The notes under the pieces are model-generated. The model was not told the origin of the DNA, made no database searches, and saw only the letters and a program-made list of their open reading frames with translations. A stretch of 54,366 nucleotides of DNA, the filler included, from Deltaproteobacteria bacterium (GTDB lineage: Bacteria > JACQOV01), in the NCBI GenBank assembly GCA_016202395.1. It is 4 parts of 4 records of this genome, joined end to end, with 100 filler letters (N's around TTAATTAATTAA, not from the genome) between each part and the next. Parts side by side here need not be neighbours in the genome. Positions count along the whole stretch, not along the records: positions 17,060 to 36,558 come from JACQOV010000020.1; 3 more parts are not named here. One strand, given 5' to 3'. Each line of letters starts with the position of its first letter. Within the stretch, counting starts at the first letter, position 1. Made by a program: the position numbers and the translations under genes. Below are positions 10,339 to 40,813 of this stretch, piece by piece.

Positions 10339-10386
10339 ATCTGAAATGTAAATTTTGTAAGATTTCAGAGTAATGGTGAAATCGAG

Positions 10387-11055: not shown

Positions 11056-11111
11056 TATATTGCTATTCATGAGATTCGATGGTATACTTGTATTACAAAG
11101 GAGGATAGTCG

Positions 11112-11330: not shown

Positions 11331-11571
11331 CATTTCCTACAAAGCCTCTATTGAAAAAGATCTCAAACGGCTCGATCGGCCGACGATCTCTCGAATTCTT
11401 AAAAAGTTAGAGCAAGTTTTGGGAAATGATCCCAGTGCAGGTGAGCCTTTAGTTGGAGAATTCAAAGGATGCTTTAAGTACCGTGTTGGAGATTATCGCA
11501 TTATTTATACCAAAACAATGGATGGGATTTTAGTTTTAAGGATCGGACATAGAAAAGAAATCTACCGGTAA
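11320..11571 (+). CDS. RelE/ParE-family toxin
   Basis: KDLKRLD, YRVGDYRIIY, LRIGHRKEIYR. Confidence 0.9.
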   Translation: MAYNISYKASIEKDLKRLDRPTISRILKKLEQVLGNDPSAGEPLVGEFKGCFKYRVGDYRIIYTKTMDGILVLRIGHRKEIYR

Positions 11572-11577
11572 GAACCA

Positions 11578-12006: not shown

Positions 12007-12712
12007 GTTGGCATTAATCACCGGCGGAGGCTCAGGAATTGGGCGGGCCGTGGCCATTGCTTTCGCGCAAGAAGGGGCCGATGTGATTATCTGTGGACGG
12101 ACTGTTCCCACGCTTAAAGAAACAGTTCGAGAGATCTCCCAAAAGGTGGGGCGTCCCGCTTTTTGGAAAGTCGTCGATGTCTCTAAAGAAAAGTCAGCAT
12201 CCGAGCTGGCTCGGTTTATTGAAAAGAAATGGGGGAGGCTTGATATTTTGGTTAACAATGCTGGAATTTTAGGATTCATGATCTCTATTGAAAAATATCC
12301 TTTCAAGGAATGGAAAACGGTTCTTCAAGCCAATCTGGATTCTGTTTTTCTGGTTTCTCAAAAAATGATTCCGTTGTTGCGTAAAGGAAAAAATTCGATC
12401 ATTGTGAATGTGACCTCCACGGTGGGAAGCCAAGGACGAAAGCTCTGGGGAGCTTATTCTGTGAGCAAGTTTGGAACCGAGGCTTTAACTCAGATCCTCG
12501 CCCAAGAATTGGAGAGTATCCGTGTTTATTCGATCAATCCCGGTGGCGCCAGAACCTCGATGCGGGCTCAGGCCTATCCTCAGGAAGATCCCAAAACCTT
12601 GCCGACCCCCGAAGAGGTGGCAAAGGCCTTTGTCTACTTGGCCTCTTCGGAATGCGCGCTTAAAAGTGGCGAGCGTTTAAACGCGCGCGACTGGCTTGGC
12701 GTAAAAAAGTAG
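11987..12712 (+). CDS. Short-chain dehydrogenase/reductase (YciK-like)
   Basis: TGGGSGIG, NNAG, WGAYSVSK, NPGGARTSMRAQAYP; start reassigned to 11987 behind GAGGAG. Confidence 0.9.
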   Translation: MGKLQNKLALITGGGSGIGRAVAIAFAQEGADVIICGRTVPTLKETVREISQKVGRPAFWKVVDVSKEKSASELARFIEKKWGRLDILVNNAGILGFMISIEKYPFKEWKTVLQANLDSVFLVSQKMIPLLRKGKNSIIVNVTSTVGSQGRKLWGAYSVSKFGTEALTQILAQELESIRVYSINPGGARTSMRAQAYPQEDPKTLPTPEEVAKAFVYLASSECALKSGERLNARDWLGVKK

Positions 12713-12713
12713 T

Positions 12714-12801
12714 GTCATCCTGAGCCCTTCGAAAGACTCAGGACAGGCTCCGCGAAGGATCCCTTGACTTTGACGAGATTCTTCGCTTCGCTTAGAATGA
12801 C
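12714..12801. repeat. Palindromic GTCAT...ATGAC class repeat
   Basis: gtcatcctgagc...gcgaagga / ttcttcgcttcgcttagaatgac between convergent SDR and MBL genes. Confidence 0.7.
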
Positions 12802-12809
12802 GAAGGTAG

Positions 12810-13871
12810 TCATGCTGAAAGATTCAACTGCTTTAAAATAGCTTCCGAGCCCCGAACATAACGATAGACGGGATTGGGATGATCGGCAATCTCTTCCACA
12901 TTCTTTACACGGAGCGCCCCTCGTTCCCATAGATACTCGACGTGCGCTCCCGCTTCTTGAAGACCGAGTAATCGATTATATCCCTGCAGCGTCCCGAATA
13001 AGGCCTTGCTGATTTCGGCGATCGTTTTGGATTCTCGACAGATCTCCAAAACTTTCAAGAGTCGGCCATAATGAAAATCGACGATCTCGTCAATCCGCTT
13101 TTGCAGTCCTTCGAAATCATTACCATGCCCTGGAAGAACCCGATCGATCCCTTTCTCTTTTCGAACTCGCATCAAGGAATTCAGATAATTGTCGAGGCCG
13201 CAAAAGAGCACAATGCTAGCCGGCGATTGGTGAGGTGTAATTCCAGGAAGGATATGATCTCCGGTGATCAGAAAATTATCAACTCGGAGACAAATCTCTC
13301 CCGGGCAGTGCCCTGGAGTGTGAATTACTTCATAACCGTTAATGATCTCGTCATGATCTTTCATGACGGTGTCGATAGGGTTGGAACTGTAGAGAGCCTT
13401 GTAGTGGCCGTACAGAGTCATCAGTTCCTCAACCGTTTCAGCATTGGCCCCCGATCGTTCAAGAAAGATCTGGATATCTTTGGAAGTCAGGATCAATCGT
13501 TCTTCAAAAGAGCTTAACACTTTTGTGTCGTACTCATGAACGTAGATCTTGGCCTTTGTGTTTTCGCGAAAATAAGCAATATTTCCGTAGTGGTCCAGGT
13601 GGCCATGGGTAATCACCACGTGTTGAATTTCATGAGGCTTGACTTTGCGGCCAAACTTTTCGCGCAGCAAGTCCAAGGCTTCCAAAAAACCTTCCGTTGT
13701 TTGAGGCAAAGGGGATCCGACATCCACAAGTGTTACGTGCTTGTGGTCGAGAATGAGGTAGAGATTATTCACGTGATTCGTGAACGTTTCTATTGCCAGT
13801 CGATAGACCGTGATTCCTCCGGCCGTTTTTAATTCAAAAATCTCTGGCTTTTTGTAGCTTCTTTCAGTCAT
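12810..13871 (-). CDS. Metallo-beta-lactamase-fold hydrolase
   Basis: THGHLDHYG, HTPGHCPG, TGDH, LPGHG; start reassigned to MTERSY. Confidence 0.9.
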   Translation of the reverse strand: MTERSYKKPEIFELKTAGGITVYRLAIETFTNHVNNLYLILDHKHVTLVDVGSPLPQTTEGFLEALDLLREKFGRKVKPHEIQHVVITHGHLDHYGNIAYFRENTKAKIYVHEYDTKVLSSFEERLILTSKDIQIFLERSGANAETVEELMTLYGHYKALYSSNPIDTVMKDHDEIINGYEVIHTPGHCPGEICLRVDNFLITGDHILPGITPHQSPASIVLFCGLDNYLNSLMRVRKEKGIDRVLPGHGNDFEGLQKRIDEIVDFHYGRLLKVLEICRESKTIAEISKALFGTLQGYNRLLGLQEAGAHVEYLWERGALRVKNVEEIADHPNPVYRYVRGSEAILKQLNLSA

Positions 13872-13925
13872 TTCTATGCTAGGAAGGATACAAAAGCCGC
13901 TCTGGAAACGCAACTGCCAGAGGTA

Positions 13926-14324
13926 TTAGGAAACTCTGAGCAGTGAACTGGATTCGGGGTTCACTTAGCAATTCTCACCTAGCCACTGTAGGCTTCGCAA
14001 AGCAGCTCCGTCCCCCGATTTCTCTTCCTGGAGGGGGTGGGAGTGTTGGGAAAGCGGTTCGTGCCGAGAGGGAGCGGGTACCCACCGAGGGCGAGCCGGG
14101 CGAGGAAAGCCGGTTATACCGGAAGGCTTTTTCCCGCCGGCTCGCCCCGGAAGGGTGCGACCGGAGGCTCTGAGCCGCTTTCCCAACACTCCCACCCCTG
14201 GAGGAAAAGGGGAATACGGATCCGATCTTGAGCCCTCCGCTTCGCTGCTCTGCAAAGCCAACAGTGGCACGGTTCGAATTGAATCGTTCACCCCGAATCC
14301 AGTCCACTTCTCAGAGTTTGCTAA
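13926..14324. mobile_element. Non-coding nested inverted-repeat element (MITE-like) carrying the family C core
   Basis: 35-bp terminal IRs (13926-13960/14290-14324, 3 mismatches), inner IR ggggtgggagtgttgggaaagcgg/ccgctttcccaacactcccacccc; core arms shared with 17060 and 36680 repeats. Confidence 0.8.
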
Positions 14325-14371
14325 CATTGCCTAAAGTTGTAAGTTTTTGAGAAGTGACGTAGAATCTCCCT

Positions 14372-16852
14372 GTGAGTTCAGATAGCGAGCCAATCCAGTT
14401 CAATGGGGATGTTCTCCCGCGGGTTCTGTCTGTCTTCGAACAACGGGATCGAGAGATTGTGGATATCCCTAAAAAACAATCCATTCGCATTCTTGTTGCC
14501 GATGATGAGGAGAGCGTAAGAACGATGTTAGAGCTTGCCTTGAAGGATGAGGGATATCAAACGGATGTTGCCGTCGATGGAGCGGATGCGGTTCAGAAGA
14601 TTGCCGCTCAAAATTTTAGTGTCGTGGTCACCGATATCCGCATGCCGATAAAAGATGGGATTGAGGTGTTGGAGATGGCCAAGAAGGTCAACTCCGAAAC
14701 AGAAGTGATCATGATGACCGGCTATGCGAGCTTAGAGACAGCCAAAGACGCTGTGAGATTGGGGGCCTACGAATACCTCATCAAGCCCCTTCCCAACATC
14801 AAAGAATTGATGAAGATTGTCCATCGAGCGGTGGAGAAACAACTCCTCGCCAATCAAAATCGTCAATTGATGAAGGCATTGCACAAAAAGGTTCATGAAC
14901 TCAATGTGTTCTATGAGATTAGCCAGAGCGTCAATTATCTTCTGGATTACCAACAGCTCATTCACTTGATGATGACCTCTCTCCAAAAGGTTATTGATTG
15001 CGATGTCGTGGCCTCCTGCGTTTCAGAGCAAGACCGCGCGGAAATCCACGTCTATCTTTCTCGCCCCGCTTCTTCCGAGGAGATGATCGATCAAATTAAG
15101 GAAAAAGTGCTGATCTCCTCCAAAGGTTCTTTTGGAAAATCTCTGGCGATGAAGAAGATAGATGTCTCTGTGGAGGTGCTGAAGAAGTCTGGGGAGCGCG
15201 AGATCGGACCGATTCAAAAATTGGAATCTTTCTTGGATCTACCCCTGGTTATTCAAGGGCAAACGATGGGTGTGATTCATGTGGCTTCTGAGAGAGCAAA
15301 CGCGTTTTCAGAAGAAAGCGCGATTTTGTTGAAAACAATTGCCAATCAGATGTCGGAATCGATGGGTCGGCTCAGGAATGTGATCGCTGAAGAGAAATCG
15401 AGGGTCGACTCGATGGTGGCCTCCATGACCGATGGAGTGATTATGACGGATGAAAAAGGGAGAGTGGCGGTCATGAATCCGGTGGCTCGGGCGATATTGG
15501 GTTTTTTGCCCGATGAGACCATTGAAGCGAGGCGCTTGGCCTTGCGATTTGAACAATTGGGGGCTCCAGAGATTCGCGTTCGCGAGATCCTTCCTGTGGA
15601 TGAAGAAAAGGGGAAGGAGATTACGCTCGAGGTGGAGACAAAGCGATATCCTCAACAGGTGCTCGGAATTCATCAAGCTTTTGTAAAGAACATTCAAGGG
15701 AAGATCATTGGTCTTGTCACCATTCTTCGAGACATCACAGTCCGCAAAGAGATCGAACGGATGAAAGATGAGTTTATCGGCACCGTATCTCACGAACTTC
15801 GCACGCCGCTCATGATCGTGAAAGGGGCGGTGAGCAACCTCAAAGATGGGATTGCGGGGGAACTCACCTCTAAGCAGATCCATGTTGCGGAGACGGCTTA
15901 TCGGAACATCGATCGTTTGGAAAGGATTATTAATGATTTATTGGATCTTTCGCGGCTCGAATCCGGCAGGGCGAACCTGCGTCGCTCGAATGTGAATTTG
16001 AGAGATTTGATTGAGGAGGTTCTGCGTGGATTTCATGTGGGAGGAGGAGATCAAAAGATCGAGCTCCAGTCCGATCTTCCTAAACAGTTGCCCTCTGTTT
16101 ACGCGGATCCCGATCTTGTGATTCAGGTGCTCAATAATCTGTTGAGCAATGCGCTCCGTTTTGCAAAATCGAGGGTTCGGGTGCGGGCGCGCTCGCGAGA
16201 GGATGCCCCCTTCGTTCAGATCGATGTCATCGATGATGGGCCCGGAATTGAACCGGAGAAAAAAGGGTTCCTCTTCAACAAATTTATTCAGCTCCATCGT
16301 TCTCAAGGAGGGGGCGGATACAAAGGGACAGGATTGGGGTTAGCCATTTGTAAAGAGATTGTTCAGCTTCATGAGGGGCAGATTGGGGTGGAGAATCAAG
16401 TCGGAAAAGGGGCCCGATTTTATTTTACACTCCCTATTTATTCGGAGGAGATCGATTTTCATGCTCGTATGGAGGGGATTCTCAAAGAGGCTCCAGGAGA
16501 AGGCCTAGCCTTTGTCGCTTTTTCGATCCAAAATTTTAGGGAGCTGTGTGAGGTTGGTGACGAAAAAGAGATAGAAAAATCCTTTCAAGAAGTAGAAGAG
16601 CGGATCCAAAAACAGGCGTTGCGGCGAGGCGACCAACTGTTGCGATATAGCCCGTCTGTTTTTGTGGTATTTTTGGGGCACATCACTCGAGAGGGGGCAC
16701 AGCGAGTCGTGGAAAGAGTGACCCAAATCATCCAACCCTCGGATTTTAAGCCATCGGATTTTAAGGTGGAGTGGGAGATCGCGGTTTATCCGGAGGACGG
16801 TTCGACGGCAGCAATTTTTGTGCAAAAAATGCTAAAAAAGTGGATTTCATAA
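14372..16852 (+). CDS. Hybrid sensor kinase: REC-GAF-PAS-HisKA-HATPase plus degenerate GGDEF-like tail
   Basis: [43 protein letters not shown]. Confidence 0.9.
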   Translation: MSSDSEPIQFNGDVLPRVLSVFEQRDREIVDIPKKQSIRILVADDEESVRTMLELALKDEGYQTDVAVDGADAVQKIAAQNFSVVVTDIRMPIKDGIEVLEMAKKVNSETEVIMMTGYASLETAKDAVRLGAYEYLIKPLPNIKELMKIVHRAVEKQLLANQNRQLMKALHKKVHELNVFYEISQSVNYLLDYQQLIHLMMTSLQKVIDCDVVASCVSEQDRAEIHVYLSRPASSEEMIDQIKEKVLISSKGSFGKSLAMKKIDVSVEVLKKSGEREIGPIQKLESFLDLPLVIQGQTMGVIHVASERANAFSEESAILLKTIANQMSESMGRLRNVIAEEKSRVDSMVASMTDGVIMTDEKGRVAVMNPVARAILGFLPDETIEARRLALRFEQLGAPEIRVREILPVDEEKGKEITLEVETKRYPQQVLGIHQAFVKNIQGKIIGLVTILRDITVRKEIERMKDEFIGTVSHELRTPLMIVKGAVSNLKDGIAGELTSKQIHVAETAYRNIDRLERIINDLLDLSRLESGRANLRRSNVNLRDLIEEVLRGFHVGGGDQKIELQSDLPKQLPSVYADPDLVIQVLNNLLSNALRFAKSRVRVRARSREDAPFVQIDVIDDGPGIEPEKKGFLFNKFIQLHRSQGGGGYKGTGLGLAICKEIVQLHEGQIGVENQVGKGARFYFTLPIYSEEIDFHARMEGILKEAPGEGLAFVAFSIQNFRELCEVGDEKEIEKSFQEVEERIQKQALRRGDQLLRYSPSVFVVFLGHITREGAQRVVERVTQIIQPSDFKPSDFKVEWEIAVYPEDGSTAAIFVQKMLKKWIS

Positions 16853-16959
16853 CATATTAAATAGGCAAATTTTGCGTATTAGTGCCATAATAGCTCACAT
16901 TTATAAAGTTTCTGAAAGCGTCTTTTCTGGGATTGTTCAAAAAATTATTTTAAATTCAA

Positions 16960-17059
16960 NNNNNNNNNNNNNNNNNNNNNNNNNNNNNNNNNNNNNNNNN
17001 NNNTTAATTAATTAANNNNNNNNNNNNNNNNNNNNNNNNNNNNNNNNNNNNNNNNNNNN
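16960..17059. other. Artificial contig linker
   Basis: 44 N + TTAATTAATTAA (stops in six frames) + 44 N. Confidence 0.98.
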
Positions 17060-17253
17060 AGCGGAGCGGATGGCCCACAATCGGTGTCGATCCGTCAATC
17101 CTATCCTTTCCGTGCGTGTTTCCTCAAGGGTGAAATTGGGGGACGTAGCTGCTTTGCGAAGCCTACAGTGGCTAGGCGAGAAATGCTAAGCGAGTCCAGA
17201 GACCTACCTCCCTGAGAGGGGTCAAAAATTCTTGAAGGTTGCTCAAAGAATAT
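17060..17253 (+). repeat. Repeat family C, partial at contig start
   Basis: Near-identical to 36745-36943 (gggggacgtagctgctttgcgaagcctacagtggctaggcgagaaatgcta...gagacctacctccc). Confidence 0.85.
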
Positions 17254-17323
17254 CTGGTAGTGAAGAGGAATGAAGAAAGTATTGGATTGGGAACTGGAGC
17301 GGTGGTAGTATAGTAACTTGGCC

Positions 17324-19585
17324 ATGAAAAAAAGACTCTTACTCCTCCCCATCATTTTTATAGCCTTAATTTTTGCGCGTTGCGCCTCTACGCCGCAGGG
17401 ATGGGAGCTCCCTGCTCCACTCGACCCCATTGAAAAGATCTCTAAACTCTACGAAAAAGGGGAGTGGCGAACGGCGCTCCGGCATCTTCATCCTCTACTG
17501 AGTGAGAGCCCTAGGGATGCCAAGCTCTATTATCTAAAGGGGCAACTCCTTCTCCACCTCGAGGAGTTCGAGGAGGCCCGCGAATCGTTAGAGATCACGC
17601 GGGACGAGATTCCAGCGCTTGCGGACTACGCCCTGTTTAGCATCGCCGAAAGCTATCGTCATCAGAATAGACCGGACAAAGCTCTGCGAAACTATCAAGA
17701 GCTTTTGCAAAATTATCCTTTGAGTCGCTATCAGATCGATGCCTCCATCGCGCTCGCAGAGATTCTATTAACTCGGGGAAAAGCCCAAGAGGCCTGGGAA
17801 ACTCTCGATCCCATTTTACACAAAGTTCAAGGGGAAACCGCTTTGGGGGCCCTCTCTACGGCGGCTCACGCGGCTGAGTTATCCAATAATCCTGAAGTCC
17901 TAAATCTGTGGCAGAGGATCTGGATTGAATTCCCCAATACTGAAGAAGCCAAGATTGCCGAATCTCGCCTGAAGAAGGTGGAGAAATTACAACCGTCCGT
18001 TTACCACGCGAGGGCTTTAAATCTGATGAAGGAGTACGACTACGGAAGAGCCTGCCCTCTCTTCCAAAACGCCGTAAAGAGGAGCGCCGAAGAGGGGCTT
18101 GCGGAGGCCTCTCCGATTAAACTCGACTACGGAAAATGCCTCTACCAGTCGAAAGAACTGGATTCGGCTCTGGAAATTTTCCATGAAATCTATTGGGAGC
18201 AAGAAAAAAATTCTCCCCAACGGGAAGAGGTCCTATTTTGGTTAGGGAAAACCTACGATCGCTTAGAAAAGGCGGAGCTGGCCCAATCGAGCTATGAAGA
18301 GTTCCTTCGCCTCTACCCCCAAGGGAGTAAAGCCCCCACCGTTCTGGTGAATCTCGCTTTTTTGAGACACACTCAAGGGGATGAAGAGGGATCAAAGGCC
18401 TTATGGGAACGATTGGTCGTGGAATATCCCGATTCCACCCAAGGGCGAGAGGCCCGCTGGCGCCTGGGATGGAGCGCTTTTCGAGAAGGGAATTACGCCC
18501 AAGCGATCGATTATTTTGAACAGGCCTTCAACGCCCCCTCTTCCCCTGTCACGGAACAGGCTCAAAGCCTTTTCTGGATGGCGCGAAGTTACGACGCCCT
18601 AGGAAAGAAAGAGAAGGCAAAAGAGATCGACCAATACCTCTTGAATCAACTCCCTCCCAACTATTACTCCCTTCTTTTGATCCAGAACGGCAACAAGACC
18701 TCGTTTTGGAAAAAGACGGAGGCGGTGGAGTATCCTCCCCCCTTTTCCTATCCCGTTCCCGCTCCTTTGCTGGATTCCCAAGAGGCGCGGTTTCATTGGG
18801 AACGATTCAAAGCCCTCTATGAGCTTTTCCTTTTCCAAGATGCGGCAGAAGAGCTCAAACTTTTGGAGCTGGCCTCCCCCCAAGATCGAAAGACGGTCCC
18901 GTGGCTCAGCCAGCAATGGCTCCGGATCGAGAAATACCACCAGTCTCAGAGGGTTGTGCGGCTGTTTTTTCAGGAGACACTTCAAAAACCGATTACGAAT
19001 GACGAGATTCCCGCATGGAATCTGGCCTATTCTAAAGGTTTTCAGCCTCTCGTAGAACACTACGCAAAACAACAGGGTCTCGATTCTCTTCTCGTGTACT
19101 CCTTAATTCAAGAGGAGAGCCGCTTTCAAGCCGATGCCCTTTCGAGTTCTCGCGCCTACGGGCTGATGCAGATTATCCCCAAAACAGGAAATTATCTGGC
19201 GCATCGCGCGGGACTGCGAGGATTTTCTGTAGAGCAACTTCACGATCCTGAAACGAACATCCGATTGGGAACGGCCTACCTTCGAGAACTCCTGGATGAT
19301 TTCTCCGGAAACTGGATGCTAGCGCTGGCGGGATACAATGGGGGACCGCACTATGTGAAAAAATGGCTGCAGGCGAACGGCCATCACTCCCCGGCCGAAT
19401 TTGTGGAGGAGATCCCTTTCCGAGAGACCCGAAATTATGTTAAAAAGGTTTTGACGAGTTATGCCATTTATAGCCAAATCTACGGAGGAGGGATTCCCTT
19501 TGAACCAGCGGCGCCAGCACAAAACAATCAAGCGTTTTGGGCCCCTGTCCATTCTTCTACTCTGTTCCATCTGGACTCTCGCTAG
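17324..19585 (+). CDS. TPR-repeat soluble lytic murein transglycosylase (Slt-like lipoprotein)
   Basis: Lipobox-like FARC, TPR repeats, IQEESRF, GLMQI, AGYNGGP, IPFRETRNYVKKV. Confidence 0.9.
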   Translation: MKKRLLLLPIIFIALIFARCASTPQGWELPAPLDPIEKISKLYEKGEWRTALRHLHPLLSESPRDAKLYYLKGQLLLHLEEFEEARESLEITRDEIPALADYALFSIAESYRHQNRPDKALRNYQELLQNYPLSRYQIDASIALAEILLTRGKAQEAWETLDPILHKVQGETALGALSTAAHAAELSNNPEVLNLWQRIWIEFPNTEEAKIAESRLKKVEKLQPSVYHARALNLMKEYDYGRACPLFQNAVKRSAEEGLAEASPIKLDYGKCLYQSKELDSALEIFHEIYWEQEKNSPQREEVLFWLGKTYDRLEKAELAQSSYEEFLRLYPQGSKAPTVLVNLAFLRHTQGDEEGSKALWERLVVEYPDSTQGREARWRLGWSAFREGNYAQAIDYFEQAFNAPSSPVTEQAQSLFWMARSYDALGKKEKAKEIDQYLLNQLPPNYYSLLLIQNGNKTSFWKKTEAVEYPPPFSYPVPAPLLDSQEARFHWERFKALYELFLFQDAAEELKLLELASPQDRKTVPWLSQQWLRIEKYHQSQRVVRLFFQETLQKPITNDEIPAWNLAYSKGFQPLVEHYAKQQGLDSLLVYSLIQEESRFQADALSSSRAYGLMQIIPKTGNYLAHRAGLRGFSVEQLHDPETNIRLGTAYLRELLDDFSGNWMLALAGYNGGPHYVKKWLQANGHHSPAEFVEEIPFRETRNYVKKVLTSYAIYSQIYGGGIPFEPAAPAQNNQAFWAPVHSSTLFHLDSR

Positions 19586-20189
19586 TTGTATCCAAGGGGT
19601 GAAAGAGACCTCAGAAGAAGATTCCAATGTGCAGGTGGGGATGGCCTCGTGGTACGGCCCGACTTTTCACGGGGAGGCAACCACCAGCGGTGAAATTTAC
19701 GACCAAAATGCGATGACGGCGGCTCATCCAAGCCTCCCGATGAACACCGTCGTTGAAGTAACAAACTTAGAAAATGGGAAAGAGGTGCAGGTTCGGATCA
19801 ACGACCGAGGCCCGTTCGCCAAGGAACGGATCATCGACCTTTCCCACGCTGCGGCGGAAAAACTGGACATGCTGGGACCTGGCACCGCCAAGGTGAAGGT
19901 GGAGGTGCTGGAGTGGCCTGAAGGGATTCCCGCTTCAATTCGCAACATCCACCGCACCCTGCATTACACGATCCAGGTTGGCTCTTATCTCAATCGAGAA
20001 AACGCGGAAGGGATGGAGAAGGTCATGAAACGGCGTTTCCGCGATGTCGCTCTCAATTCCGTTGAGGTCCAAGGGACCCCGTATTATCGAATCGAGATTG
20101 GGGACTTTACCGATCGACAAGAGGCTTTAGAGATCGCCATCTCCCTCAGCCGCGAAGGCCTGAACCCTATCGTCATCGAGAAAGAATGA
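19500..20189 (+). CDS. rlpA: Septal ring lytic transglycosylase RlpA with SPOR domain
   Basis: GMASWYG..FHG, TAAH.SLP, VRINDRGPF, RIIDLS, IQVGSY; TTG start inferred from GGAGG. Confidence 0.9.
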   Translation: MNQRRQHKTIKRFGPLSILLLCSIWTLASCIQGVKETSEEDSNVQVGMASWYGPTFHGEATTSGEIYDQNAMTAAHPSLPMNTVVEVTNLENGKEVQVRINDRGPFAKERIIDLSHAAAEKLDMLGPGTAKVKVEVLEWPEGIPASIRNIHRTLHYTIQVGSYLNRENAEGMEKVMKRRFRDVALNSVEVQGTPYYRIEIGDFTDRQEALEIAISLSREGLNPIVIEKE

Positions 20190-20191
20190 AG

Positions 20192-20229
20192 TTGACAAAT
20201 GATAACATTTTTGATACAAATGTTATCAT
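20192..20229 (+). promoter_or_regulatory. Promoter and operator of TA operon
   Basis: TTGACA-N17-TACAAA; perfect 12-bp IR atgataacattt/aaatgttatcat overlapping the ATG. Confidence 0.75.
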
Positions 20230-20452
20230 GATAAGAACACAGATCAGTCTTCCCGAAAAAGAGTACCTTTTGGTCCAAAAAGAGGCGAAACGAGAAGGGA
20301 TCTCCCTGGCCGAATTTTTCCGCCGCGCTCTGCGTAGCGCCTTGCCTTTCTCGAAGGGAAAGCGATGGATGCGCTATGCGGGGTTGATAGAGTCCGGAGA
20401 TCCTCAGTCCAGTCAAACTATTGATGACTTAATTTATGGCAAAAAAGACTAG
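20228..20452 (+). CDS. CopG/RHH-type antitoxin (VapB-like)
   Basis: MIRTQISL...GISLAEFFRRAL...IDDLIYG; upstream of PIN gene. Confidence 0.8.
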   Translation: MIRTQISLPEKEYLLVQKEAKREGISLAEFFRRALRSALPFSKGKRWMRYAGLIESGDPQSSQTIDDLIYGKKD

Positions 20453-20508
20453 AACCCATTTCATAAATACTAACGAAATCCAAAATTGCAGCCGGAAGGA
20501 TTCATGAG

Positions 20509-20916
20509 ATGGGTTCTAAGCGCTACGTAGACACCTCTGCCTTTATTGCATTCCTAGATCGATCGGATTCTTACCATTCCCTGTTTCTGCGGCTTTTTGC
20601 GGATCCCCCTTCGTTAGTGACCTCTTCTTTGGTTATTGCGGAGGGGCATGCCTGGTTTTTAAAGCGATATGATTCTTTTCGCGCCATCCAATTTCTGAAT
20701 TTCATCGAAGACTTAACGGTTCTGTCTGTGGAGCCGGTGGGAATGGAAGAGATTCATAAGGCCACGCGTGCCATTCGTCAATTCTCAGATCAAGGGCTCA
20801 CCTGCGCTGATGCAGTCGGTTTGCTATTGATGAATCGATATAAAATAGAGAGTTGTTGGTCTACAGATCGCCATTTGAGTTTAACGGGCATCCCTTTGGT
20901 GATCCATCAGATTTGA
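20509..20916 (+). CDS. PIN-domain toxin (VapC family)
   Basis: YVDTSAFIA, VIAE, LTCADA, STDRH. Confidence 0.9.
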   Translation: MGSKRYVDTSAFIAFLDRSDSYHSLFLRLFADPPSLVTSSLVIAEGHAWFLKRYDSFRAIQFLNFIEDLTVLSVEPVGMEEIHKATRAIRQFSDQGLTCADAVGLLLMNRYKIESCWSTDRHLSLTGIPLVIHQI

Positions 20917-20930: not shown

Positions 20931-22094
20931 CTATTGAATTCGTTGGTATCCCGCAACAACATCGGCGAGTCCATTTCCGATGCTTTGTAAAAGAGTCCTC
21001 GTCTCTTCTTCGGCCAATGCCCGCCACTGAGAAGTATCGTTAAAAGCCTCAAACGCAAAAGTGGGCTCTCCCTGCTTATAAGCAACAAGGACAACGCCAC
21101 TAGGATCAACAAGTGCCTGTGCCTGTCTGGCAGATTCAATAGCTCCTTGTCGTATATGTTCTAATGGATCTAACAATGCATAATGATCCAGTAGAGTGAG
21201 CGGCGCGGGGCCGGGTTGATTTAATACCACGATGGGAGCACGAACTCCTTGATTGGCAAGTTCCTCAGCTGTACCGAAATAATGGAAAACCCTTCCCATA
21301 ACACCTCGAAAATAACGATAGAAACCGGGATTGGGAGCTGCTGCAGGATCTACCGAAACGACGACATCTCGTATCGTATCAGCAATTCTAAAAGGATTGC
21401 GTGTTCCGTTCGCGCCAACTTCAATAACCCTAGGTCGGAGAGAAGCAAGATCCCTTAGGTTATCGAGTCGCCCGAAACCAAAAAACGCAAAGTCAACCGC
21501 CCTTCTCACAAGGGGTGACTTAGAAAACCTCCTCGCAACGCCATATCCCCCCGGCAATATCGGGGCCGCGACAGCGACGGTGTCATAGGCTAATCCAGCG
21601 CGATCCCACCAACTATCACAATTCTCAGCGCATTGCGCCAAAGATAGATCCAACGATGCCACATCCCAGACACTTTCGACATAATTCCCAGTTGAATCGA
21701 GGTAAAGCATGGGATTATTCCGCGCATAGGAATAGGGGTTTCGTTGCTGAGGATCGTGGAGGTTGCCGCCTGAAAAGATGGGATCGACGGAGAGAAACCG
21801 AGAAAGAGTAGCGTCATAATACCGGGCGTTGAAATAAGAGAGTTCTGAGGTGGCGTCCCGTTCCTGGCCGGTGAATTGATAGTGTGAAGAGTCCAGTGTG
21901 GAGTGTAAAGTGCCTGAGATTTCTCCAAAGGGGGTGTATTGAAAAGATTCGACCACCTCCCCTTCTGAATTCGAAACCAAGCTTGTGGAACCGAGGTGAT
22001 CAGGGTAAAGATAGTTTACCTCGGCCTCAACCCACGAGTTGGCTAACAGGAAGGCCAACCCTATCCCCACCATGCGCATGAAAGCTTGCCCCAT
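20931..22094 (-). CDS. Mini-Rhs protein 1: signal peptide + Rhs-associated core + methyltransferase-like C-terminal domain
   Basis: VEA|EVNYLYPDHLGS, YTPFGE, FTGQERD, ARYYD, RFLSVDP, NNPMLYLDSTG; start could be 22094, 22079 or 22073. Confidence 0.85.
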   Translation of the reverse strand: MGQAFMRMVGIGLAFLLANSWVEAEVNYLYPDHLGSTSLVSNSEGEVVESFQYTPFGEISGTLHSTLDSSHYQFTGQERDATSELSYFNARYYDATLSRFLSVDPIFSGGNLHDPQQRNPYSYARNNPMLYLDSTGNYVESVWDVASLDLSLAQCAENCDSWWDRAGLAYDTVAVAAPILPGGYGVARRFSKSPLVRRAVDFAFFGFGRLDNLRDLASLRPRVIEVGANGTRNPFRIADTIRDVVVSVDPAAAPNPGFYRYFRGVMGRVFHYFGTAEELANQGVRAPIVVLNQPGPAPLTLLDHYALLDPLEHIRQGAIESARQAQALVDPSGVVLVAYKQGEPTFAFEAFNDTSQWRALAEEETRTLLQSIGNGLADVVAGYQRIQ

Positions 22095-22134
22095 CCCTTC
22101 ACCCCCCCAAGCATTCGTCAATACACTTTAGGCG

Positions 22135-23208
22135 TTAATACGCCTCAGTCTCAGGACTCGGTTTAGCAGGTCTTTCCAGACTCTGCAAGTGAGCCATAGG
22201 ACAGGCTTCCTCAGGGGTAGCTTCTTCTTGAGTCATTTCGACAACCCACAGAATTAAAGCCGCACCTGCCCCTCCTAAAGGGCCGAAGGCCAGCGTGGAT
22301 CCCCCCACGATACCGAGTTTTGCAGCGTACTCCCCCGCCTCTTCATAATTCCCTGCGTAAACCTCATCCCCTATTTGGTAAACATCGTAGGTGGTTAAAG
22401 CAACAACCGCGGTCCCACCCAAGAGGCGAGCAGGGCCACGGAGGAGCCGTAAGGTCCCATTAGCAGATTGGGTGGTGGGAACACCGGCTCTACCAGCCGT
22501 CTCCACAGCAGAATCTATACCACGCAAACTGCGGGCGATAGAGACACGATCGGGGGCGCGTAGGGAGAATCGTCTTCCCTCCGGTAAGCTCCGATTCAAG
22601 GAACGTTGTAGGTCACGCCCCGATTCAATTCGCTCAGCCAGCTCAGGATTTTTCATCACAATGTCCACCCTCATGTCATCAAGTTGACGGAGTACTTCCC
22701 GCAATTCTTCCATCCGGCCAGGCGATTCCACCTCCCGAGCAATTCTCACGGCCTCCGTCCTTAACCGAGCATAGGGAGCAATAGGGTCAGCGGGATTCCG
22801 ACCCTCAGGATCGACAAGGCGGATCGGATTATTCCACACATAGGCGTAAGCGTTGAAACTCTGAGGCTGAGCAGGCTTTCCTGCAACGGGATCCACACTC
22901 ACGAATCGCGCCACCGCAGGATCGTAGCGCCTCGCGCCGTAATCGTACAAATCGATTTCGTGATCGAGCTCTTGGCCGGTGTAAAGATAAGAGATAGCCC
23001 CCTCACCCAAACCCTCTCCCCTTTGGGGAGAGGGAAAAGGGTGAGGGGTTACAATCTCACCAAAAGGGGTGTAAAGCTCTGTTTGCTGAACCGTGCCCAC
23101 CGCATTTGTTCCCACTGCGGTAGAACCCAAATGATCCGAATGAAAATAGCGCACCTCGGCCTGAACCACGCTACACCATAACGCAAAAATGAAACTCCAT
23201 CGTATCAT
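22135..23208 (-). CDS. Mini-Rhs protein 2: signal peptide + Rhs core + Gly-rich hydrophobic C-terminal domain
   Basis: VQA|EVRYFHSDHLGS, YTPFGE, YTGQELD, YGARRYD, RFVSVDP, NNPIRLVDPEG. Confidence 0.85.
   Translation of the reverse strand: MIRWSFIFALWCSVVQAEVRYFHSDHLGSTAVGTNAVGTVQQTELYTPFGEIVTPHPFPSPQRGEGLGEGAISYLYTGQELDHEIDLYDYGARRYDPAVARFVSVDPVAGKPAQPQSFNAYAYVWNNPIRLVDPEGRNPADPIAPYARLRTEAVRIAREVESPGRMEELREVLRQLDDMRVDIVMKNPELAERIESGRDLQRSLNRSLPEGRRFSLRAPDRVSIARSLRGIDSAVETAGRAGVPTTQSANGTLRLLRGPARLLGGTAVVALTTYDVYQIGDEVYAGNYEEAGEYAAKLGIVGGSTLAFGPLGGAGAALILWVVEMTQEEATPEEACPMAHLQSLERPAKPSPETEAY
22999..23048. repeat. Palindromic repeat embedded in frame in mini-Rhs 2
   Basis: cccctcaccc-aaa-ccctctcccc-ttt-ggggagaggg-aaaa-gggtgagggg, encoding PHPFPSPQRGEGLGEG. 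Confidence 0.8.
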
Positions 23209-23256
23209 TAAATTCAAATAACTTGTCAACACGCGACTGGACCCCAGTTATTCATC

Positions 23257-23365
23257 GTCATTCCCGCGAAAGCGGGAATCCAGTACTGGATCCCCGCTTT
23301 CGCGGGGATGACCTGGATTCCCACTTTCGTGGGAATGACGGGATCCCCGTTTTCACGGGGATGAC
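23257..23365. repeat. Cluster of four dRS3-like palindromes (ATYCCC-N8-GGGRAT with GTC/GAC flanks)
   Basis: gtcattcccgcgaaagcgggaatc followed by three reverse-oriented variants ending ggg(a/g)atgac. Confidence 0.85.
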
Positions 23366-23399
23366 GCGTGAATTACCGAAGCCGGACCCGCTTATTCTG

Positions 23400-24461
23400 C
23401 TACTTGGGACTCCTCTCTTGCTGCAATGTACTCAAAAGATCGAGAGCAGAAGGAGATAGCACTGGTAATTCTCGTTCATATACGGAGGTCTCCCAAATCT
23501 CGCCTCCCTCTGAAGGTTCATCCCCCGTACCCTCTTCCCGTATCAGCCTTAATCCAAACACTACTTTCTTCACTGCTTTTCCGTCTAACTCCACTACCGG
23601 CGTAAATATCCCTGTTCTAAGATTAAGCTCTACCCGCTCATCATTCATTAAATAAAATGCAACATACCCACAACCGTCATCCAATACTGAAGAAAGAGCC
23701 CTAAAAGTGTTGTAACTACGGGCTAAGTCCTCAACCCCAGCAGTTGCTTCACCACTCGTTTTCTGTGCCCCCCGCCGAAATGAGGAAGGAGGAAGTTGAA
23801 TCTCCAAACTATAGCGATATTCGACTCCAGAGTTAGGATCTCTTGTAAAAAACTCTTTTCCTGTCTCGGGATCCACAGGACGCAATGTAAAACTAGCTCC
23901 TCCTTCTTTGTCAAACTTAATATCCGTAGGAAAGGAAACCCACTTGACGGGGAGATCCCCAAACAGCGAGGGGACTTTAAATGGCTCTCCCCATTCTCCA
24001 CTCTGTCCATACTGATCATAGAAGGCACCATACAAATTATCGTAACTTTTAGGTTCCTTCCCATCAGGATCCAGATATGCAACAGGGTTGTTGATAGCAT
24101 AGGTGTAGGAATTCAAAGATTGTGGTTTTCTGGGATTGCTTTCGGCTGGATCAACAGAGATAAATCGGGTGAGCGCCGTGTCGTAATACCGGGCGCCGTA
24201 GTAGTGAAGCGCTGCCTCGGAATCGAGCTCTTGGTCGGTGAAACGGAAAGGGACGGAGGCGGTTTCCTCAGGAACGCTTTTGTGCGAAACCTCTCCGAAT
24301 GGAGTATAGAGAATCGCCTCCGTAATCTCTGCGCGTTCATTGGTCATCGTTATCGCGGAACCGAGATGATCAGGATGGTAATAAACCACGCCCGCAGAGA
24401 CAAGACTCGATCCCAGCGAGAAAATCACGCTCCCCATGCCTATTTTCCATGAATTCTTCAT
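23400..24461 (-). CDS. Mini-Rhs protein 3: signal peptide + Rhs core + unknown C-terminal domain
   Basis: VSA|GVVYYHPDHLGS, YTPFGE, FTDQELD, YGARYYD, RFISVDP, NNPVAYLDPDG. Confidence 0.85.
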   Translation of the reverse strand: MKNSWKIGMGSVIFSLGSSLVSAGVVYYHPDHLGSAITMTNERAEITEAILYTPFGEVSHKSVPEETASVPFRFTDQELDSEAALHYYGARYYDTALTRFISVDPAESNPRKPQSLNSYTYAINNPVAYLDPDGKEPKSYDNLYGAFYDQYGQSGEWGEPFKVPSLFGDLPVKWVSFPTDIKFDKEGGASFTLRPVDPETGKEFFTRDPNSGVEYRYSLEIQLPPSSFRRGAQKTSGEATAGVEDLARSYNTFRALSSVLDDGCGYVAFYLMNDERVELNLRTGIFTPVVELDGKAVKKVVFGLRLIREEGTGDEPSEGGEIWETSVYERELPVLSPSALDLLSTLQQERSPK

Positions 24462-24487
24462 CTCTCTAAAACCAAAATGCTAAGGGT

Positions 24488-24646
24488 CTATCAGGTTGCT
24501 GAAAAACTCATTTTCCCTCAGGCTGTTCAAAAAGGTCCAGATGCGAGGCAGCCCGAGGAAGCCGACTGAGGCGTACTTGGTTAGTACGCCGCAAGGAGCG
24601 CCGACGAGGGCAACGAAGCAGATGGGCCTTTTTCAACAGCCTGCTA
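24488..24646. mobile_element. MITE-like repeat family A
   Basis: Doubled left end (caggttgctgaaaaa...caggctgttcaaaaa), right end tttttcaacagcctgcta whose CTA is the stop of mini-Rhs 4; interior homologous to 1-117. Confidence 0.8.
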
Positions 24647-25804
24647 CTTTTCTACCAATCGGCTCCCTTTCAGAGAAGCAACAGCATCTAGAGGAACGCC
24701 CCACTCCTTTAAAGCGTCCTGAATCAATGGGCCTATCTCTTCCAAAGCATTCGCTCTTTTCTCCAGCCGGTCCGGTCCCCAATCGGATCGGGACCCCACC
24801 CATTCTCCTTGAATCATTAAAGGCACATTCGGGGCATCGGTTCGTGTGAGAGTGTACCATACCCCTTGCTTGTTTCTTACGGCAATACTAGCTAGGCCTC
24901 GGGTCTCTTTTTCGAAACCGAGAACCTTGGCATTCAGTGTCATTCCAGAGGCAAAGGGGGCGTCTTTGGTTGGCCCCAAAATTATAAAGCCAACCACTTT
25001 GGGCCCTTCCGGTAGAGAAGTGGCAAGAACCGTAAAATCATGGTATCGCACCTCATCGGTGAGTCTGGCCACCGCAGAACTTCCTTTGACCCCTTTGGCC
25101 TCAATCTTCTGTCCTCCGGAGTCACTAGAAATTGGGCTTGTATGAACCCCGTAGGTCTTCCCTTGAACTTTCCACTCATTCCCTCTCTGGAGTTGAAAAG
25201 TTCCACCAACAGGGACTCCCACCACATCGTTTACAGAAACCGCAACGTTGTTTCCTCCATGAACCACAAAATCTTTGGTGGTAACGGTTACAAGAGATTG
25301 GCCTTTAAAAAGATCGAGATATGGACCGTCCAACAAAGTACTGAAAGCGGCAGGCATCTGGGGAACCGCTCCCGCTACCAGTTTCCCCTCTATGTCGATG
25401 TGTCGGATAGGATTTCCTAAAGCGTAAGAATACCCATTCCATCGCGCGGGCTGGAGAAGATAAATCTCTGGAAGCGATCCTTGAAGCAGCGGGTCTTGAC
25501 TGAGTAACACCGTGAGAATGGAATCATAATAGCGAGCGCCGTAGTTGTAAAGTTCGGACGCGGAATCGAGTTCTTGGTCGGTGAAACGGAAAGGGACGGA
25601 GGCGGTTTCCTCAGGAACGCTTTTGTGCGAAACCTCTCCGAATGGAGTATAGAGAACCGCCTCCGTAATTGCTGCATATTCATTGGTCATCGTCATCGCG
25701 GAACCGAGATGATCGGGATGGTAATAAACCACCGCCGCAAAAGCCCCATCAACCCCCAATGACAATATTCCGCTTAAAATGACTATCTTCCAAGCATGTT
25801 TCAT
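24644..25804 (-). CDS. Mini-Rhs protein 4: signal peptide + Rhs core + C-terminal domain homologous to mini-Rhs 5
   Basis: AFA|AVVYYHPDHLGS, YTPFGE, FTDQELD, YGARYYD, SQDPLL, GNPIRHIDIEG; start reassigned to MKHAWK. Confidence 0.85.
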   Translation of the reverse strand: MKHAWKIVILSGILSLGVDGAFAAVVYYHPDHLGSAMTMTNEYAAITEAVLYTPFGEVSHKSVPEETASVPFRFTDQELDSASELYNYGARYYDSILTVLLSQDPLLQGSLPEIYLLQPARWNGYSYALGNPIRHIDIEGKLVAGAVPQMPAAFSTLLDGPYLDLFKGQSLVTVTTKDFVVHGGNNVAVSVNDVVGVPVGGTFQLQRGNEWKVQGKTYGVHTSPISSDSGGQKIEAKGVKGSSAVARLTDEVRYHDFTVLATSLPEGPKVVGFIILGPTKDAPFASGMTLNAKVLGFEKETRGLASIAVRNKQGVWYTLTRTDAPNVPLMIQGEWVGSRSDWGPDRLEKRANALEEIGPLIQDALKEWGVPLDAVASLKGSRLVEK

Positions 25805-25857
25805 CTCTCTAAAACCGAAATACCGAAGCCTGACCCCTCCTTCTGACCCCTCCTTTT

Positions 25858-27021
25858 TTATTTCGTGACCCATCTTTCCTTTTCTAAAGTACCTTTAATA
25901 TCGAAGGGAATACCATTCTGATCAAGGATCTGTTGCATCCTTGCCACCAACTTATCTTCATCACCCCGTAGCCTGAAATGACCAGGGCCTTTATCCGAAC
26001 GAGTAACCGCTATGCTCCCTCTTACCACGAGACGAATATCTAGACCGTCCGTTCTAGCCGCAGTATAGAGAATCCCTGTCTTAGGATCTTGCACCAAGAC
26101 AGTAGGCCCTGTATGAACTTCAGAAACAGGCAGTCTTAAAATTCTAACGACTGCATGAAAGTTTGTTAATGGGGCATCTAAAGAATAACCGATGACAACA
26201 GGATCATCCGGATTCGATGGACGAGGGATGGGACTCCCTTCAGGAAGTGCACTCCCTGGAATAGTAAATGCCAAGCCATTGTAAATATTGGCCCCCCCTT
26301 CAAATACGTAATTCCCAGAATTTCCACCGGGTCCAGACACCTCCACATCTTGGGCCCCCGTATCCTGCGATCTCCCTTGATAGAAAAACCCAGGCTTCCC
26401 CTCCCACGAACCCGTTCGAGTCAATTGAAAAGTCCCCCGCACGCTATCAGATCCATTCTTAGGGAGCTGATCTCCGCCATGTATCATGTAGTGGAGAGTG
26501 GAGATATCCACCCCCTGGGGAACATTCCCCCCGACTTTCCTCAACTCCATTAATTGGTTGGACTGGGCCGCCACCATTTCGGGGAACTGCCCTGTTTCCA
26601 ACATCCCTTCTAAATCAATCCTAGTGATGGGTCTACCGCGAGTATAAGAATACCCGTTCAAACGACCCGGTTCTATGAGATAGAGATAAGGGATTTCACC
26701 TTTGAGAAGAGGATCCTGGCTGGTAAGAGCACAAAGTACAGGATCGTAATATCTTGCACCTAAATAATAAAGCTCGGAGGAGCGGTCGAGTTCTTGGCCG
26801 GTGTAGAGATAATCGGCCGATGCGGTGGTAACGTGTTGGATCTCTTCACCATAAGGGGTGAAGTGCGAAATCATTTTGGGGTTTCCTTGCTCATCGGTGA
26901 GGATCTGCGAAGATTGAAGCAGATCTGAATGATAAAAAGAGACGCTCGCTTGCAAGGTTCCAACATGAACGCACAAAAAAAGAAACAGTCCCAGAATGCC
27001 ATTCTGCAGGAATGTCTTCAT
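25858..27021 (-). CDS. Mini-Rhs protein 5: signal peptide + Rhs core + unknown C-terminal domain
   Basis: LQA|SVSFYHSDLLQS, FTPYGE, YTGQELD, LGARYYDP, SQDPLL, GRPITRIDLEG; GAGGAGG RBS before ATG 27021. Confidence 0.85.
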   Translation of the reverse strand: MKTFLQNGILGLFLFLCVHVGTLQASVSFYHSDLLQSSQILTDEQGNPKMISHFTPYGEEIQHVTTASADYLYTGQELDRSSELYYLGARYYDPVLCALTSQDPLLKGEIPYLYLIEPGRLNGYSYTRGRPITRIDLEGMLETGQFPEMVAAQSNQLMELRKVGGNVPQGVDISTLHYMIHGGDQLPKNGSDSVRGTFQLTRTGSWEGKPGFFYQGRSQDTGAQDVEVSGPGGNSGNYVFEGGANIYNGLAFTIPGSALPEGSPIPRPSNPDDPVVIGYSLDAPLTNFHAVVRILRLPVSEVHTGPTVLVQDPKTGILYTAARTDGLDIRLVVRGSIAVTRSDKGPGHFRLRGDEDKLVARMQQILDQNGIPFDIKGTLEKERWVTK

Positions 27022-27076
27022 TCGAATCCTCCTCGGGTCAGTAGATGTCGTTTTGATAGCCCTAGCCGGAATTTTA

Positions 27077-27092
27077 TGCAAAATTCATGCCA
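27077..27092 (-). promoter_or_regulatory. Sigma54 (-24/-12) promoter of the mini-Rhs array
   Basis: Minus strand TGGCATGAATTTTGCA = GG-N10-GC with consensus flanks, about 55 bp upstream of the first ATG. Confidence 0.8.
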
Positions 27093-27119
27093 TGAGGGGG
27101 TTTCCGAAAGGCTATTTTT

Positions 27120-27132
27120 TAACTTGTTGATT
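27120..27132 (-). promoter_or_regulatory. IHF-binding consensus site 1
   Basis: AATCAACAAGTTA matches WATCAANNNNTTR, just upstream of the -24 box. Confidence 0.6.
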
Positions 27133-27227
27133 TATAAACTGATTTTTATGAATTTTGGGAAACTTGGATGGGCTTTGAACTCAAGACTGTGTTTAATTTT
27201 TTTAACACCTTTAAACGAAAACTAACA

Positions 27228-27240
27228 TAACTTATTGATT
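27228..27240 (-). promoter_or_regulatory. IHF-binding consensus site 2
   Basis: AATCAATAAGTTA matches WATCAANNNNTTR in an AT-rich tract. Confidence 0.55.
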
Positions 27241-27315
27241 ATATTATTCTTTTATGGATTAATTTTTCTTCACACCCCCCTGTTAATTTTTTTCAACAAC
27301 AGGCGCCCAACAAGA

Positions 27316-27822
27316 TTAGGCGGCGGTGCGGGCTCTGGCCTGTTCCCGAGCTCTTTGAACCCTCTGGAACTCGCGCAGCTTCTCTTGAAGGTCTTTGACC
27401 AAATCCGACAAGGGGAGCAACAGATACTGACCTTGAGCCTTCAAAACATCCAGCACTTCCTGGTCGCCTCGGCAGAGATAGAAATTCTTCACTCCATCGG
27501 TGAGCAAACTAATCGGCTGCTCGCTGCTCAAGGCCTCGTGGAAAGGCCTCTCAATCCCAAACGCTTTGCGCAGATATTCGAGCGTTTTACGAATCTTCTG
27601 AAAACTCATCCCCTTCCTTTTAAGAGTGACAACGGCCTGAAGAACGGCAACATCGAGGGTCGAATAGAGCCTTTTGAGTCCCCCTTTGCCCGAAGCGCGC
27701 TGAATGCTGGGAGAGAAAACCCCTTCTTCATCCCAATACTGAAGGTTCCGATTGGTAAGGCCGGTGAGCTCCTGAATCTCACCGCTGGTGAACCCCTCTT
27801 TTTTCGAAAGAAACACCATCAT
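27316..27822 (-). CDS. MerR-family HTH regulator
   Basis: FTSGEIQELTGLTNRNLQYWDEEG..PS...RLYS.LD...L.RKGMS. Confidence 0.85.
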   Translation of the reverse strand: MMVFLSKKEGFTSGEIQELTGLTNRNLQYWDEEGVFSPSIQRASGKGGLKRLYSTLDVAVLQAVVTLKRKGMSFQKIRKTLEYLRKAFGIERPFHEALSSEQPISLLTDGVKNFYLCRGDQEVLDVLKAQGQYLLLPLSDLVKDLQEKLREFQRVQRAREQARARTAA

Positions 27823-40809: not shown

Positions 40810-40813
40810 TTCT

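Follow-up and report, generated by a model that had tools for sequence, protein, structure and literature searches.

What purpose could be served by a run of short genes that encode the closing core of an Rhs toxin and a variable tail, with no shell for the core to close? The question is raised by a stretch of 54,366 nucleotides from Deltaproteobacteria bacterium (GCA_016202395.1), called here, in its entirety, the window. Between 20931 and 27081 it carries an array of five consecutive co-oriented open reading frames (ORFs) on the minus strand, each with a signal-like segment, an Rhs core and a tail. Comparison with relatives suggests that the five genes are members of a widespread, apparently undescribed split form of Rhs toxins. 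For this window we read them, tentatively and at somewhat less than an even chance, as separately exported plug-and-cargo subunits that would complete a separately encoded shell.

Starts and ORF anatomy were placed from the sequence together with an alignment of the five proteins. Before start choice, the open frames spanned 25858-27081, 24644-25873, 23400-24461, 22135-23232, and 20931-22121; the starts chosen at 27021 (A), 25804 (B), 24461 (C), 23208 (D), and 22094 (E) yielded proteins of 387, 386, 353, 357, and 387 aa, respectively. An in-frame stop is located 5-29 codons 5' of every chosen start, and a GGAGG lies 6 nt 5' of the ATG of gene A. The 5' flanks of genes B and C resemble each other. 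The five genes are listed below, a hyphen marking the predicted cleavage site.

25858..27021, minus strand: gene A, 387 aa; signal-like segment 1-25 (..GTLQA-S), Rhs core about 26-140 (end IDLEG), tail about 141-387, a paralog of the gene B tail.
24644..25804, minus strand: gene B, 386 aa; signal-like segment 1-23 (..GAFA-A), core about 24-141 (IDIEG), tail about 142-386; a mosaic gene.
23400..24461, minus strand: gene C, 353 aa; signal-like segment 1-23 (..LVSA-G), core about 24-135 (LDPDG), tail about 136-353.
22135..23208, minus strand: gene D, 357 aa; signal-like segment 1-17 (MIRWSFIFALWCSVVQA-E), core about 18-137 (VDPEG), helical tail with a Gly-rich hydrophobic end.
20931..22094, minus strand: gene E, 387 aa; signal-like segment 1-24 (..SWVEA-E), core about 25-137 (LDSTG), PT-TG-like linker and a tail of no assigned family.

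All five proteins matched TIGR03696, the NCBIfam profile of the Rhs-associated core, at 60-81 bits against a curated cut-off of 32.5 bits (E = 1.8e-16 for A, 2.8e-16 for B, 5.2e-23 for C, 1.3e-20 for D, and 4.6e-20 for E), with each match starting at profile position 1-6. A hidden Markov model (HMM) of the core, built from the five genes, matched exactly these five among the 737 window frames of at least 40 aa. The Pfam family RHS_repeat found no match in the five proteins, and no frame of the window is rich in YD (tyrosine-aspartate) motifs. Since stops lie in frame upstream and the core is matched from the start of the profile, a reading of the five genes as tails left by broken long rhs genes does not hold.

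The alignment disclosed two aspartate columns, SxDP and xDxxG, that are invariant in all five proteins (D103 and D136 in gene A numbering). The final motif reads DPxG only in C and D, with DLEG in A, DIEG in B, and DSTG in E. Passages of PMC8765631 describe how two aspartates 22 residues apart, D1324 and D1346, carry out cleavage in RhsA, how the C-terminal protease domain seals the cocoon, and how the core of solved Rhs proteins forms a strip spiralling into the cocoon. By position, the two window columns appear to correspond to D1324 and D1346.

Each N-terminus consists of Met, one or two Lys/Arg residues, an uncharged hydrophobic run of 10-19 residues, and a small-x-small site (LQA-S, AFA-A, VSA-G, VQA-E, and VEA-E in A to E, respectively) positioned 0-2 residues before the core strand xVxY(Y/F)HxD(H/L)LxS. 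A crude signal-peptide rule was passed by all five genes, but also by 15 of 53 control ORFs of the window, and is weak when taken alone; the stronger support is that the same layout recurs in 58 of the 150 best relatives described below. A lipoprotein reading of these N-termini was rejected by eye, as no Cys follows the small residue at the predicted cleavage sites. Segments nearly identical to the signal-like segment of gene D occur in the database proteins P0128, P0130, P0133, and P0151.

Together, these data support five individually start-coded, putatively signal-bearing plug-plus-tail genes and bear out much of the original prediction: five co-oriented genes of about 350-390 aa, a signal-like segment (rule-based, with the cleavage sites as predicted) followed at once and in the same register by the core, a core-only architecture with all five genes above the TIGR03696 cut-off and no RHS repeats or shell match, both Asp positions kept, and a variable tip after the core (214-246 aa, with the tips of A and B paralogous). 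The possibility, raised at the same time, that the genes are decayed fragments of long rhs genes is contradicted by the upstream stops, by the genes' own ATGs, and by the lack of any shell remnant before them.

To survey relatives, a profile of the five signal-plus-core regions was searched against 1.84 billion protein representatives; inclusion of the signal segment favours short signal+core+tail proteins, hereafter minis, in the ranking. There were 304,730 matches at E <=1e-3, of which 240 reached E <=1e-30. Sorted by script, the best 150 comprised 58 signal+core minis, 18 short proteins without signal, 19 long proteins, and 55 intermediate ones. The minis range from about 310 to 410 aa in length, and their number includes four from the window itself and two that seem misclassed; outside the window, the signal+core layout recurs in 54 clusters formed at 50% identity. 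A shell remnant (..KYIFAG..RIA..) precedes the core in many of the matches classed as long, intermediate, or lacking a signal, and in none of the five window genes. At least seven minis derive from one NCBI metagenome-assembled genome (MAG) labelled Deltaproteobacteria bacterium, where they are located on different contigs; further named minis belong to Candidatus Peregrinibacteria and to a Patescibacteria MAG. The architecture is not unique to the window, and the survey of relatives that the original prediction called for thus disclosed a wide family. Full-text literature searches, with supplementary tables outside their scope, returned no description of signal+core-only proteins or of paired core-less shells, so that the family does not appear, in the literature searched, to be one already described; related material includes a 2012 survey of polymorphic toxins (PMC3482391) and a 2026 paper on bacterial teneurin-like proteins.

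The genomic surroundings of minis were sampled in two phyla and one class because there is no close relative of the organism among reference genomes: gene C has none there, and LigA of the organism is at most 60% identical to its relatives among the matches listed, which span several phyla. Two samples were each drawn from a single phylum (401 and 351 genomes) and the third from a single class (68 genomes), and loci were kept where the match reached the signal segment. An intact core-less shell was found beside minis in five of seven informative loci, the other two showing one remnant and no shell, respectively. In G259, G031, G428, G678, and G785, minis of 271-336 aa adjoin a same-strand, signal-bearing YD protein of 1498-1870 aa. 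The two of these shells that were scanned (G259 and G031) contain DUF6531 and RHS repeats; immunoglobulin-like, choice-of-anchor D, or fn3 domains come next, and a core is absent.

The point at which the shell ends is informative. The YD region of the G259 shell terminates with ..DYILLNGKLVAKV (..LLNGKLVAKV), where fused relatives go on into the core; in the fused protein P0319 of Syntrophotalea carbinolica, the same strand runs directly into the core, ..VFFYHTDFAGTP. The gene therefore appears to be split exactly at the shell/core junction. Among the best 120 of 140 relatives of the G259 shell at E <=1e-20, 91 have no core and 29 have one, and nearly all of these 120 start with a signal-like segment; Geobacter, Desulfobacteraceae, Marinobacter, Rhodocyclus, and Nitrospiraceae are named among them. 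Proteins P0348-P0364, from Marinobacter and Rhodocyclus, were seen to consist of a signal and a YD shell in about 1150 aa, lacking both the core and extra C-terminal domains.

Three further loci show intermediate arrangements. In G273 (L190, G273:C147) and G216 (L191, G216:C64), a single frame runs from the shell through Cys-rich repeats and a membrane segment bearing an Arg-rich stretch to Met, Lys/Arg, a hydrophobic run, AxA, the core, and a tail. The Arg-rich membrane segment of G273 matched CFI-box-CTERM above its cut-off (E = 1.7e-21), a match obtained in L190 only. Such a frame could represent a polyprotein cut by a sorting enzyme and signal peptidase, or two joined genes lacking a stop between them. 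The repeats of L190 and L191 are acidic double-disulfide or Cys-rich in kind. In G019 (L176, G019:C88 2934-13567), a core-less shell of 1915 aa is followed by three cassettes, each with 2-3 YD repeats, two hydrophobic segments separated by a Lys/Arg loop (a membrane hairpin), the core, and a tail; ORFs of 128-209 aa follow the cassettes. These intermediates suggest that a signal-like segment before the core is a recurrent design rather than chance.

Taken as a mechanism, the split reading would proceed as follows. A Sec signal peptide would carry each protein across the inner membrane. The core of about 115 aa, the closing strip of a YD cocoon with its two-Asp autoprotease, would then dock onto a core-less YD shell that is made and exported separately. 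The variable tail would be the cargo, kept within the shell or by it and severed behind xDxxG, and the array would supply a single shell with a choice of cargoes, their diversity arising by recombination in the conserved core. Export, docking, cleavage, and toxicity of the five proteins, as well as a shell in this organism, are what we infer from this comparison.

Several observations weigh against this mechanism for the window. No shell was seen there: an HMM built from 50 YD shells matched none of the 737 window frames at E <=10. In a FastTree phylogeny of the approximately 115-aa cores, whose rooting is arbitrary, the shell-linked minis fall in one 'HTDPAGTP' clade, interleaved with fused proteins, and the window's five genes fall in another clade made up almost only of minis. 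No shell lies closer than about 9 kb to one mini of G684, and a search of that genome with one shell query found none; a second G684 mini, on a 3.4-kb contig, is uninformative. In G607 (L195, G607:C1 12386-14101), two minis are followed by what is left of a shell N-terminus, 295 aa, the match being interrupted by a stop. From these two genomes, it seems that minis can persist without an intact neighbouring shell. A small same-strand downstream ORF of 69-188 aa accompanies 10 of 10 complete minis of the sampled loci and none of the five window genes. The signal peptides are predicted by the crude rule, and we know of no precedent for the loading of cargo into a shell after export. We lowered our confidence because the shell was not seen in the window and because the array lacks the immunity genes seen elsewhere in the family. 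The suggestion that cargo is loaded in trans into a separate shell is thus backed by core-less shells beside minis in five of the seven informative loci elsewhere, but not by the 54-kb window, which has none and whose genes belong to the other core clade. Likewise, the idea of a distinct system of plug+cargo subunits stands as far as gene anatomy and a wide family are concerned, but not for the shell partner, which is not in the window. The G607 remnant itself, on a 3.6-Mb contig, is followed by a 122-aa ORF at 13733-14101, and the whole resembles a decaying split-Rhs locus.

Scans of other material returned little. Among the short frames of 80 metagenome loci there was no clear signal-bearing mini, and no core-less shell was found in the 77 of 80 loci that could be scored; one doubtful mini candidate, L110, has no YD-rich ORF of at least 120 aa within its 20 kb. 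This metagenome material thus supplied no context for the core clade of the window genes. Ten further entries, derived from the LigA loci, contained no signal-bearing mini.

The missing shell could also mean that no shell is used. The five proteins would then be stand-alone secreted pro-toxins, whose core folds or pairs alone and cuts off the tail, and whose freed tail acts in the periplasm, vesicles, or the surroundings of the cell. The absence of a shell from the window and the shell-less mini of G684 are compatible with this, as are the minis of the related NCBI MAG, spread over at least seven contigs, and the retention of both Asp columns in all five genes. Other evidence points the opposite way: the core of solved Rhs proteins (PMC8765631) is a strip spiralling into the cocoon, and the matching core-less shells in five of seven informative loci would be open-ended without such a partner. 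An AlphaFold2 model of gene C, based on 58 aligned minis, gave no compact lone-core fold, with a mean predicted local distance difference test score (pLDDT) of 52.7 and a predicted template modelling score (pTM) of 0.24; it comprised a helix at 4-17 and hairpins of the core, at pLDDT 77-89, with the tail scoring under 50. This would fit, weakly, a strip that needs a partner. The model of gene B, from a 3-row alignment, was uninformative (pLDDT 31.8). Overall, we regard shell-free action as rather unlikely.

A different account of the array is that it holds silent or decaying cassettes, either stored rhs C-terminal (rhs-CT) modules for recombination into a main rhs elsewhere, or shell-less remnants, in both cases unexpressed. 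A 2024 preprint (10.1101/2024.02.26.582050) reads 43 short Rhs proteins as such unexpressed recombination stock, and the minis beside a truncated shell in G607 would suit this view, as would the lack of immunity ORFs in the array and of a consensus promoter 5' of it in a simple scan. Set against these are five frames that are all intact, start from separate ATGs, carry a signal-like segment, and are not preceded by a shell remnant, as well as the strong GGAGG before gene A. Moreover, the layout is kept in the 54 other 50%-identity clusters, which argues for selection on the signal. We consider silent cassettes very unlikely.

The tails themselves offer few clues to function. Their lengths are 214-246 aa, and those of A and B are paralogous, at 29% identity (E = 3e-20). 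Neither has relatives of known function; for the gene B tail, the single relative among 5.8 billion proteins is P0121, 80% identical and encoded on a 1.1-kb contig, and there was no usable Atlas match. A PDB sequence search with gene A gave matches in the core region only, so that likeness to TccC3 and YenC2 is confined to the core, and the tail of gene D had no PDB match. None of the five tails reached the threshold for any toxin family in Pfam or NCBIfam. Below threshold, gene E gave a weak match to Ntox10 (E = 0.016, residues 134-192) and gene D one to the BTH_I2691 effector of type VI secretion systems (T6SS; E = 0.068). For the gene E tail there were, also below the bar, an Atlas lead to PT-TG (0.81) and Rossmann-like folds at template modelling (TM) scores of 0.35-0.44.

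Gene B is a mosaic. Its nt 70-250 are 88-100% identical to gene C; beyond a break at the GARYYD motif, inside the core, identity to C is about 40% (after nt 280), and the 3' part is 55-70% identical to gene A. This C/A mosaicism appears to be the exchange expected for polymorphic toxins.

With no tail assigned to a toxin family, the proteins might not be toxins at all but secreted self-cleaving or anchoring modules, with tails that serve adhesion, nutrient capture, or signalling; this would explain the missing immunity genes. The A and B tails without relatives of known function would be in keeping with such a role, and so would the length of the window tails, 214-246 aa versus 118-173 aa in minis with immunity genes. 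Yet a Pfam scan of the 58 minis identified Ntox8, Ntox44, and Tox-REase-9 in one member each, and the PT-TG-like linker lead of gene E, the Gly-rich hydrophobic end of gene D with its weak T6SS-effector match, and the cassette-type mosaicism of the array all favour toxins. The remaining single-member match of that scan was to DUF6973. A role other than toxicity therefore seems to us quite improbable.

Whether the missing immunity genes characterize the family is a separate matter. In the array, the only intergenic ORF of at least 40 aa is a 42-aa frame within the B-C repeat, and all other same-strand frames overlap a gene in another frame; the absence of immunity ORFs that had been reported for the array is thereby upheld. 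The further proposal, that no self-immunity is needed, fails as a family trait, as the downstream ORFs of the 10 complete minis elsewhere include one above the Pfam cut-off for Imm40; another lies below the cut-off for Imm32. The window's lack of small downstream ORFs is a real exception in the family.

The window genes can be compared with several known systems. Like canonical Rhs proteins, whether PAAR-Rhs proteins of the T6SS such as RhsA and Tse5 or Sec-dependent proteins of the WapA type, the window genes have the TIGR03696 core, the two Asp positions, a variable tail after xDxxG, and recombination in the core; unlike them, they lack a YD shell, an N-terminal plug, and a PAAR/VgrG part, carry the signal-like segment directly on the core, and are not followed by an immunity gene. 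With orphan rhs-CT cassettes they share short core+tail genes, tandem arrays, and common 5' homology. Such orphans, in the sampled loci, contain a shell-coding remnant and no signal, lie behind a full-length rhs, and come with immunity genes, whereas every window gene starts from a separate ATG with a signal-like segment and no remnant, and there is neither a main rhs in the 54 kb nor an immunity ORF.

The nearest analogue of the split Rhs form is the BC cocoon of the toxin complex (Tc), formed by TcB and TcC, which is likewise built from split proteins and in which the core/toxin part is exchangeable. According to a portion of PMC11067744, TcC subunits may be encoded at distant loci. The two differ in that TcC holds much of the YD shell and assembly is cytoplasmic, whereas the split Rhs form is cut at the shell/core junction and would have Sec signals on both parts. 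The five genes contain no Rhs-repeat half-cocoon, and no TcA or TcB was found in the window. The loci of G259, G031, G428, G678, and G785 resemble the array in their signal+core+tail genes and the same core register; the window differs from them in lacking a shell and small ORFs and in its core clade.

The remaining features in and around the array are the following.

22998..23047, minus strand: palindromic insert in the gene D core, in frame, reading ..PHPFPSPQRGEGLGEG.. between the PFGE and YxYTGQE motifs; seen as an insertion column in the alignment.
23256..23365, no strand: repeat of the C-D spacer, about 4 copies of a 28-nt palindromic element like repetitive extragenic palindromes (REP-like).
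24519..24643, no strand: repeat of the B-C spacer, a 26-nt inverted repeat with arms 73 nt apart.
27082..27315, minus strand: 5' region of gene A, A+T-rich, 234 bp; possible array promoter region, downstream of the MerR-family gene.
27316-27822, strand not stated: MerR-family gene (MerR_1, E = 6.7e-15) at the 5' side of the array.
20186..20916, plus strand: ribbon-helix-helix (RHH) antitoxin-like gene and PIN (VapC-like) gene, convergent with gene E.

With the chosen starts, the spacers measure 53, 182, 191, and 40 bp. The spacing of 40-190 bp proposed at the outset holds (40-191 bp); palindromes fill two of the four spacers and the other two are just short. Four groundwater metagenome runs, all from one study, gave a summed contig depth of 1,086-20,634 in the C-D repeat bin (23112-23412) and 176-3,953 in the B-C repeat bins (24316-24917), versus 4-15 in most unique bins. 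Because these depths far exceed those of the unique neighbours, the small palindromic spacer elements appear to be very abundant across the groundwater community. Contig joints were also considered as sequence variants, a reading that was rejected: their sides of at most 30 letters fall within conserved core motifs and were read as assembly-graph links among paralogs. The REP-like insert of gene D lies in a loop of the Rhs core, and similar peptides occur in the same place in P0128, P0130, P0136, and P0147; the tail of the G019 shell contains a stretch, ..PSPLRGEGRGEGE.., similar to the insert peptide.

A simple scan found no sigma-70 consensus upstream of gene A, and a promoter/terminator scan gave fewer sites than in shuffles. 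There were no RNA data for the array among the sequencing runs listed as containing it. At the other end, the 3' end of gene E lies 14 bp from the convergent PIN gene, the distance given in the original prediction for a vapC; this gene (20509-20916; PF01850, E = 2.8e-8) and the RHH gene (20186-20452; PF01402, E = 2.4e-7) form an abutting pair. Farther along the window, a type IV pilus cluster at 38186-43022 encodes a PilQ secretin (E = 1.2e-135) and PilM (E = 2.1e-75), which shows the organism to be diderm with an outer-membrane secretin.

Enclosure of Rhs and Tc toxins is ascribed to one chain folding round its own C-terminus or to a two-chain assembly in the cytoplasm. If the natural split between shell and plug is real, encapsulation would be possible after membrane translocation, and choosing another gene, with no need to recombine into a main gene, would suffice to swap cargo. 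Many of the short database entries named "RHS repeat-associated core domain-containing proteins" would then be working subunits, not junk or silent cassettes, and a shell with its mini would provide a simple pair for studying cocoon closure and loading. A bolder version, which we find doubtful, is a widespread two-gene Rhs system in which the YD cocoon leaves through Sec while still empty and exchangeable signal-plug-cargo subunits then close and load it, one shell serving many cargoes and the window representing a five-cargo magazine with tails without known relatives and no self-immunity. Since they have no known relatives, the window tails are candidates for new toxin activities. Should the array indeed work without self-immunity, it would be aimed at something else than kin bacteria; eukaryotic grazers and the tiny bacteria that live as episymbionts in groundwater are two examples.

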